Assembly (NCBI RefSeq): GCF_053078305.1
Contig: NZ_CP166879.1
DNA: 64,000 nt
Direction: 5' to 3' (one strand)
Below are positions 34,683 through 35,365 of this stretch, piece by piece. A model generated the notes under the pieces. It was not told the DNA's origin and did not search any database. It saw only the letters and a program-made list of their open reading frames with translations. Both the position numbers and the translations under genes were made by a program. The first letter of the stretch is position 1. The number at the start of each line of letters is the position of its first letter.

Positions 34683-35365
34683 GCTTCCTCCTGCAAGTGC
34701 CCGTTCACCAGCCGTAAGCAGCGGTCGCAGCGTGCCGCCAGTTGCAGGTCGTGGGTCACCATAATCAACGTGGTGCCATGCTCACGGTTGAGGGAAAACA
34801 GCAGGTCGGCAATTTTATCGCCGGTCTGGCGGTCAAGGTTGCCGGTGGGTTCGTCGGCAAACAGCACATCAGGTCGACCGTTAAAGGCTCGTGCCAGCGC
34901 CACTCGTTGCTGTTCACCGCCGGAAAGCTGTGCCGGAAGATGATCCAGACGTTTACCCAGCCCTAACTGTTCGAGCAACGCTTTCGCTCCGTTACGACTT
35001 TCCGCGCTACTCTCACCGCGCAGCAGCGCCGGAAGCTCGACGTTTTCCAGCGCGTTAAGGGTAGGAATTAGCATAAATGACTGAAAAACAAAGCCGACGT
35101 GCTTCGCGCGCAACTTTGCCCGCGCTTCTTCGTCCATATTATGTAGCGGTTGTCCCACCAGACTCACTTCGCCACTGCTGCCGTCATCCAGCCCGGCGAG
35201 GATCGCCAGCAAGGTTGACTTACCCGATCCCGACTCGCCCACCAGCGCGATGGTCTCGCCACGTTTGACAACCAGCTCAACTCCGGTGAGGATGGAGAGT
35301 TCATGCTCCCCCTGACCGACGGACTTCTTAAGATGATGAACTTCAACAATGTTTTCCGCTGGCAT
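34679..35365 (-). CDS. ybbA: ABC transporter ATP-binding protein
   Basis: 228 aa with Walker A (GESGSGKST), signature (LSGGEQQR) and Walker B. Confidence 0.93.
   Translation of the reverse strand: MPAENIVEVHHLKKSVGQGEHELSILTGVELVVKRGETIALVGESGSGKSTLLAILAGLDDGSSGEVSLVGQPLHNMDEEARAKLRAKHVGFVFQSFMLIPTLNALENVELPALLRGESSAESRNGAKALLEQLGLGKRLDHLPAQLSGGEQQRVALARAFNGRPDVLFADEPTGNLDRQTGDKIADLLFSLNREHGTTLIMVTHDLQLAARCDRCLRLVNGHLQEEA

Follow-up and report, generated by a model that had tools for sequence, protein, structure and literature searches.

The window, by which we mean the whole 64-kb stretch of DNA that was analysed, comes from Escherichia coli: of 5426 complete E. coli genomes, 5415 contain positions 34600-36000 at an identity of at least 95%, and the best E. 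coli match, an O145 strain, reached 99.9% identity. On the minus strand lies ybbA (34679-35365), which encodes an ABC ATPase of 228 amino acids (MPAENIVEVHH...) starting at the ATG at 35365, followed by ybbP (32268-34682, minus strand), which encodes the permease of the YbbAP ABC transporter. On the plus strand, tesA (35333-35959) encodes a 208-residue precursor (MMNFNNVFRWH...) whose mature protein begins at A27, in a reading frame that is open from 35303. It is followed by the second gene of its operon, ybbO (35949-36758, plus strand), and by cnoX (36783-37673, plus strand). Aligned over its full 228 residues, YbbA differs at a single position from the YbbA chain of PDB entries 9GE6-8. TesA matched PDB chains 1IVN and 9GE8_T, both of which start at ADTLL, corresponding to residue 27. 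With the YbbA ATPase, the FtsX-type permease YbbP and the secreted SGNH hydrolase TesA encoded together, this is a locus of the YbbAP-TesA type VII ABC transporter and lipid hydrolase.

Within the operons, ybbP overlaps the ybbA stop codon by 4 bp (34679-34682), an overlap of the ATGA type that suggests translational coupling, and ybbO overlaps the 3' end of tesA by 11 bp (35949-35959). TesA codon 164 (35822-35824) encodes proline in the window and leucine in K-12, in all PDB chains and in all aligned Enterobacteriaceae (PLPPFF versus PLLPFF), and YbbA codon 222 (34700-34702) encodes histidine in the window and glutamine in K-12 and the PDB chains (VNGHLQEEA versus VNGQLQEEA). Both are differences from the best E. 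coli match, and both alter the amino acid.

The head-to-head overlap

The coding sequences of tesA and ybbA overlap head to head at 35333-35365 on both strands (33 bp, 11 codons of each gene, phase 123:321). A preliminary description of this DNA had reported that the two 5' ends share 33 bp, and both the open reading frames and the K-12 RefSeq annotation agree: in NC_000913.3, tesA (b0494) at 519139-519765 (-) and ybbA (b0495) at 519733-520419 (+) have the identical 33-bp overlap. It had also stated that the first 11 codons of each gene are antisense to the partner, and the antisense register is indeed exact, with tesA codon n being the reverse complement of ybbA codon 12-n and codon position 1 lying opposite position 3. 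The two consecutive ATG codons of tesA lie opposite His10-His11 of ybbA, and the ATG of ybbA lies opposite His11 of tesA.

The tesA start at 35333 given in that description needs a qualification. The overlap itself is upheld, but the second tesA ATG (35336-35338, plus strand), which is the start in PGAP genomes, is also a possible start and would yield a 207-residue precursor with an overlap of 30 rather than 33 bp. Of the aligned Enterobacterales, only Photorhabdus and one MAG (L022, tesA start elsewhere) do not have ATG at this codon. With the 5' end of ybbA at 35365 and the tesA start at 35333 or 35336, the genes form a divergent overlapping protein-coding pair, and the 30-33 bp head-to-head overlap of the tesA-ybbO and ybbA-ybbP operons is genuine.

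Transcription and translation signals

The preliminary description had proposed transcription start site (TSS) mapping as a check on the overlap and had argued that the expression signals of each gene must lie inside its partner. A published table of TSSs, obtained by exonuclease-enriched 5'-RACE sequencing of mid-exponential cells in two replicates (Kim et al. 2012), supplies this mapping for tesA. The tesA TSS is listed there at 519021 (-) with 45 reads and a 32-nt 5'UTR, and the 51-nt upstream sequence given with it is identical to positions 35251-35301 of the window, which places the TSS at 35301 on the plus strand, within codon 22 of ybbA. This published promoter sequence contains a perfect -35 hexamer, TTGACA (35265-35270, plus strand), inside ybbA codons 32-34. 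The candidate -10 element, GAGGAT (35288-35293, plus strand), was assigned from its position, 17 bp downstream of the -35 hexamer and inside ybbA codons 25-26, and is weak, with matches at three of six positions. A scan of 34900-35800 for consensus sigma-70 promoters found no promoter, and the tesA promoter was recognised through a relaxed reading by eye together with the published TSS. The resulting 5'UTR (35301-35332, plus strand) is antisense to ybbA codons 12-22 and has little predicted structure, and the Shine-Dalgarno (SD) sequence at the actual tesA start is weak (-3.2 kcal/mol, near background).

The SD sequence of ybbA, AGGAAGGG (35369-35376, minus strand), is antisense to tesA codons 13-15, which encode P-F-L of the signal peptide. 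Its predicted duplex with the anti-SD has an energy of -7.0 kcal/mol, compared with a mean window background of -2.1 kcal/mol, and its AGGA core is retained in nearly all aligned Enterobacterales loci. Two candidate TSSs for ybbA lie inside tesA on the minus strand, one at 35520 with a 155-nt leader and a more distal one at 35752 with a 387-nt leader and a TATAAC -10 element. Both are weak, at 2 reads each, so the E. coli ybbA promoter is not securely placed. In Pseudomonas aeruginosa PA14, the TSS of the orthologous ybbAP operon (PA2858-PA2857) has been mapped 78 nt inside tesA, with an 88-nt leader. The expression signals located to date thus fall inside the partner gene, as had been proposed, with the tesA TSS, -35 and -10 elements in ybbA, the ybbA SD sequence and reported TSSs in tesA, and the P. 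aeruginosa ybbAP start in tesA. A promoter within the partner gene has been shown experimentally once in each of two species, for tesA in E. coli and for ybbAP in P. aeruginosa.

Two other arrangements of the signals were considered. A shared symmetric bidirectional promoter, with a common -10 element and non-overlapping transcripts, was rejected because the tesA TSS at 35301 and the ybbA TSSs at 35520 and 35752 make the transcripts overlap. Leaderless mRNAs at junctions of the CATG type, in which the two start codons overlap by 2 bp, are not favoured, given SD-like motifs 5' of most ybbA starts and, in several lineages, of tesA, and given the length of the P. aeruginosa ybbAP leader.

Start codons of tesA and ybbA

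Eleven open antisense codons are unsurprising by chance, and the case for the overlap therefore hinges on the authenticity of both starts. For ybbA, the open reading frame opens only 8 codons 5' of the annotated ATG, and the next in-frame ATG, GTG or TTG is codon 42, in the Walker A region. A stop codon stands directly 5' of this ATG in Photorhabdus and Providencia. The solved homologous ATPases LolD, MacB and MJ0796 align from YbbA residues 6-10, so the YbbA fold requires a start at or before residue 6, and the cryo-EM construct of YbbAP-TesA contains the full 228-residue YbbA. For tesA, a mature protein that begins at A27 means that the start must sit far enough upstream for a signal peptide. 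At least one of the two tesA ATGs is retained in 18 of 18 aligned Enterobacterales loci, and where one has been lost, YbbA residues 10-11 are HR or QH rather than HH. As these residues vary between HH, HR and QH while the antisense CAT is always retained, they are free to vary in YbbA.

Divergent overlaps in older annotations were mostly start-codon errors according to a published survey, and several gene callers, as well as the annotation of Klebsiella pneumoniae MGH78578, place the tesA start at the in-frame TTG at 35366-35368 (plus strand), where tesA would abut the ybbA ATG and the genes would touch without overlapping. The corresponding TesA forms of 194-197 amino acids are frequent in databases, KPN_00472 of Klebsiella pneumoniae MGH78578 is 594 bp long, and the weak SD sequence at 35333 also fits such an annotation artefact. 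However, the codon at this position is no start codon in 10 of the 21 tabulated Enterobacterales loci (TGG, CTC, CTT, TTT, TTA, TAT, AGT and others), and a precursor starting there would have a signal peptide, MPFLFLVLLTFRAAAA, without a charged n-region. The SD energy for this codon amounts to -1.5 kcal/mol. No aligned locus has lost both upstream ATGs, although YbbA tolerates variation at residues 10-11. We regard this start as very improbable. Some gene finders instead start tesA upstream, at the in-frame ATG at 35303-35305 (plus strand), which would give a 218-residue precursor and a 63-bp overlap. A strong SD-like sequence, GAGGATGGAG (-8.4 kcal/mol), precedes this codon, which is ATG in 12 of the 21 tabulated loci, and TesA forms of 218-220 residues are called in databases. 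The mapped TSS at 35301 would nevertheless leave a leader of 2 nt and GAGGATGGAG outside the mRNA; the codon is CTG, GTG, ACC, GTT or ATT in the other 9 of 21 loci, Rahnella has a TAG at 35330-35332 directly 5' of ATGATG, and ybbA codons 12-21 on the opposite strand account for the apparent conservation. Moreover, the published survey, which covered 338 genomes and in which divergent overlaps made up 457 of 42,055 well-characterised overlaps (~1%), judged all divergent overlaps longer than 60 bp to be misannotations. A start at 35303 is accordingly extremely improbable.

Comparative and TSS evidence thus argues against start sites further downstream that would separate the genes, the ybbA start being unique and the non-overlapping TTG at 35366 not conserved, and indicates that both annotated starts are in all likelihood those really used. 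Divergent overlaps have been described as under-represented because initiation signals constrain the partner gene, and the tesA/ybbA pair, within the accepted size range, is a good genuine example and no surprise. Among the protein hits (P0001-P0120), near-identical TesA proteins were called at 189, 194-197, 204-210 and 214-220 amino acids, together with fused forms of 286-402 amino acids, a spread that shows how the divergent overlap destabilises automatic start calling.

Conservation at silent sites

In a comparison of 12 Enterobacteriaceae sequences, in which only codons with an invariant amino acid were counted, third positions of ybbA were invariant in 13 of 22 codons within codons 1-35 versus 1 of 64 within codons 36-139 (Fisher p=7e-9). 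The constrained stretch of ybbA coincides with the coding overlap, the leader and the promoter of tesA. The TTGACA hexamer in particular is invariant in 15 of 18 Enterobacterales loci, two ybbA third positions included, and silent sites next to it vary freely. On the other strand, silent-site constraint in tesA is found at codons 1-19, which correspond to the ybbA coding overlap and ribosome-binding site, with little beyond approximately codon 33. In Pseudomonas (12 loci), silent-site conservation is likewise enriched at the 5' ends of both genes (p=0.003 each). A search of 34000-37000 against Rfam at E<=1 returned no RNA family, and the predicted fold of the tesA 5' region was no more stable than that of shuffled sequence (z=+0.8); a structured RNA element therefore does not explain the conservation.

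A conserved ybbA promoter was also sought at the silent sites of tesA in the 12 Enterobacteriaceae, and no conserved block was found beyond codon 33. As a weak lead, the minus-strand sequence CAGAAT at 35431-35426 and the segment 35414-35419 coincide with unusually conserved third positions of tesA I32/L33 and D28/T29 in the Enterobacteriaceae. CAGAAT resembles a -10 element approximately 60 nt 5' of the ybbA ATG and possibly belongs to a proximal ybbA promoter; it is without a credible -35 element or a reported TSS.

The junction across species

We carried out a profile search for tesA with one genome per species, and 80 of 583 confirmed loci, from Gammaproteobacteria and one betaproteobacterium, were analysed. 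A ybbA homologue was divergent and directly upstream of tesA in all 80. Starts were chosen independently for each gene, by a signal-peptide heuristic for tesA and as the start nearest the alignment position of E. coli residue 1 for ybbA; these heuristic choices are ambiguous in Halomonas, Pseudomonas and Zhongshania. The start codons overlapped or lay at most 12 bp apart in 66 of 77 classifiable loci, and the tight junction was lost in the other 11. Overlaps of at least 20 bp were seen in 22 loci, from Enterobacterales and Shewanella. A further 21 loci, from 13 named genera or groups including Vibrio, Psychromonas, Rheinheimera, Oceanisphaera, Dokdonella, Cycloclasticus, Nitrincola and Noviherbaspirillum, showed a 2-bp overlap in which the two starts form the palindrome CATG, and independent NCBI gene calls gave the same 2-bp overlap on three further contigs. 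Gaps of 0-3 bp occurred in 9 loci (CATATG in Pseudoalteromonas and Aliidiomarina) and gaps of 4-12 bp in 14 loci, mainly from Pseudomonas, in which CATG would likewise result from an in-frame upstream ATG. The remaining junctions had gaps of 13-70 bp (8 loci) or more than 70 bp (3 loci). From this pattern, the E. coli overlap seems to have arisen when the TesA n-region was extended, in this lineage specifically, by approximately 8 codons into ybbA on an old junction with zero spacer. These comparisons suggest that the back-to-back layout of the starts is ancient, often in the form of CATG, and that the Enterobacterales overlap is an elaboration of it.

In Pectobacterium betavasculorum (L014, ~3500-3580), an insertion of approximately 48 bp within the shared stretch makes both predicted N-termini longer (TesA MMNFKNVFYVRSFAWRSTRWAGLRKHVF..., YbbA MFAKTSPASATPSKTAHVENILEVHH...), and the overlap would reach approximately 75 bp, beyond the 60-bp limit above which the published survey always found artefacts. 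Three Shewanella loci (L057, L068 and L070) have tesA/ybbA overlaps of 20-35 bp and a long TesA n-region, an arrangement that looks independent of the one in Enterobacterales. In Candidatus Pantoea persica (L020), ybbA is fragmented and apparently a pseudogene, consistent with gene decay in a host-restricted lineage, and tesA is largely intact (aligned to residue 165). Three loci with a 2-bp overlap of the CATG type (L083-L085, 2186-3403) carry a gene for a FabV-type enoyl-ACP reductase (Eno-Rase domains) downstream of tesA, not ybbO; the lipid-metabolism neighbour of tesA thus differs among lineages.

A model of the junction

We consider it probable that the observations are jointly explained by a genuine overlap with mutually embedded signals and facing promoters, which arose in Enterobacterales as an elaboration of an ancient back-to-back layout. 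The tesA-ybbO and ybbA-ybbP operons, whose products form one complex, YbbAP-TesA, have no intergenic DNA between them, so that tesA and ybbA each carry expression signals of the partner gene. Codons 22-34 of ybbA contain the promoter and TSS of tesA, codons 13-15 of tesA contain the ybbA ribosome-binding site, and one or more ybbA promoters would lie further inside tesA. Promoters embedded in this manner would face each other, and the two mRNAs would be complementary at their 5' ends, over at least 65 nt (35301-35365) and over approximately 220 nt if the start at 35520 is real. The overlap would be tolerated because it falls on segments under low constraint: in TesA the n-region of the signal peptide, and in YbbA the N-terminal tail that precedes the first beta-strand. 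An insertion anywhere between the starts would part both start codons from their ribosome-binding sites, which would make the layout difficult to reverse, and this self-locking alone could explain its persistence, without regulatory benefit.

The preliminary description had also raised transcriptional interference or antisense coupling between tesA and ybbA, and either is plausible. The stronger tesA promoter would be expected to damp the weaker ybbAP promoter through transcriptional interference, and antisense pairing may help in this damping, as any duplex would cover both ribosome-binding sites. Against the model as a whole stand the weak SD sequence and poor -10 element of tesA and the 2 reads at each E. 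coli ybbA TSS, and mutual repression would be an odd design for partners in one complex.

A rival explanation is that the selected function of the overlap is active antisense regulation as a divergent excludon, in which colliding RNA polymerases and cleavage of the 5'-end duplex by RNase III would make the expression of TesA and YbbAP mutually exclusive or set their ratio. Transcripts of the two operons do overlap, as expected of a divergent excludon: the tesA TSS lies 64 nt inside ybbA, and ExcludonFinder (NAR 2025, PMC12288877), on the basis of RNA-seq coverage, lists tesA-ybbA as one of 16 divergent excludons of E. coli that recur in half or more of 58 MG1655 samples. The mapped TSSs imply 5' overlaps from 65 to approximately 450 nt, read counts are asymmetric (45 for tesA versus 2 for ybbA), and the back-to-back junction is conserved across Gammaproteobacteria. 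However, overlapping transcript boundaries, by which ExcludonFinder recognises such pairs, are obtained automatically from any expressed pair with overlapping coding sequences, and the accessible literature reports no expression anticorrelation or RNase III dependence for tesA/ybbA. Products that form one complex argue for co-expression, and the tight junction has been lost in 11 of 77 loci. We think it unlikely that the overlap was selected as an active excludon. A further proposal is that the junction of the start codons is an ancient selected expression module that sets the ratio or timing of periplasmic TesA relative to its membrane partner YbbAP. The CATG junction in at least 13 named genera or groups of Gamma- and Betaproteobacteria, the 30-33 bp overlap in Enterobacterales and the mutually embedded promoters and ribosome-binding sites would fit such a module; we offer this as a tentative possibility and hold it to be doubtful.

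The preferred reading, that of a genuine overlap with embedded signals on an ancient layout, builds on an overlap that is already known from the reference annotation, from the 2025 YbbAP-TesA paper and from the excludon catalogue, and on a tesA TSS that has been public since 2012. Our additions are modest, namely that the back-to-back junction is widely conserved and that silent sites carry a footprint, neither of which the accessible literature on the pair mentions; such conservation, or a function in ratio or timing, is likewise not described for tesA/ybbA in that literature. The pair is a useful case in which gene finders disagree, calling TesA at 194 to 220 amino acids, and it demonstrates that coding sequence can accommodate strong promoter and ribosome-binding signals, which leave a clear footprint at silent sites. 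The overlap also joins two operons with products that recent work has shown to assemble into one complex, and if the junction does set the TesA:YbbAP ratio, it would provide a compact and testable model of regulation via facing promoters within genes.

Comparison with known systems

The K-12 locus is the same locus with the same annotated overlap, and the strain in the window differs from it by TesA L164P and YbbA Q222H. The YbbAP-TesA structure paper (PLoS Biol 2025, PMC12646458) mentions the overlap and similar arrangements in other Gram-negative bacteria, and the accessible part of that paper does not analyse start codons, embedded promoters or conservation of the junction.

The excludon concept comes from Listeria. 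Like divergent excludons, tesA and ybbA are neighbours on opposite strands whose transcripts overlap at their 5' ends. Classical excludons differ in that a long UTR overlap connects separate coding sequences with opposing expression, whereas in tesA/ybbA the overlap extends to the coding sequences, both proteins belong to one complex, and the pair was listed as an excludon on the basis of transcript overlap.

The pR and pL promoters of coliphage 186 are reportedly face to face in non-coding or regulatory DNA, with transcriptional interference that has been measured. As in that system, the tesA and ybbA promoters would fire toward each other over a short interval (~120-450 bp), one being much stronger than the other. 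Unlike pR and pL, both lie inside coding sequence, and the interference measured in the phage is what we infer for the bacterial pair.

A further comparison is with P. aeruginosa, where PA2856 (tesA) and PA2857-PA2858 form the orthologous divergent pair with starts 10 bp apart. The annotated starts do not overlap in this species, and an in-frame upstream ATG would create the same CATG junction that is found in many other lineages.
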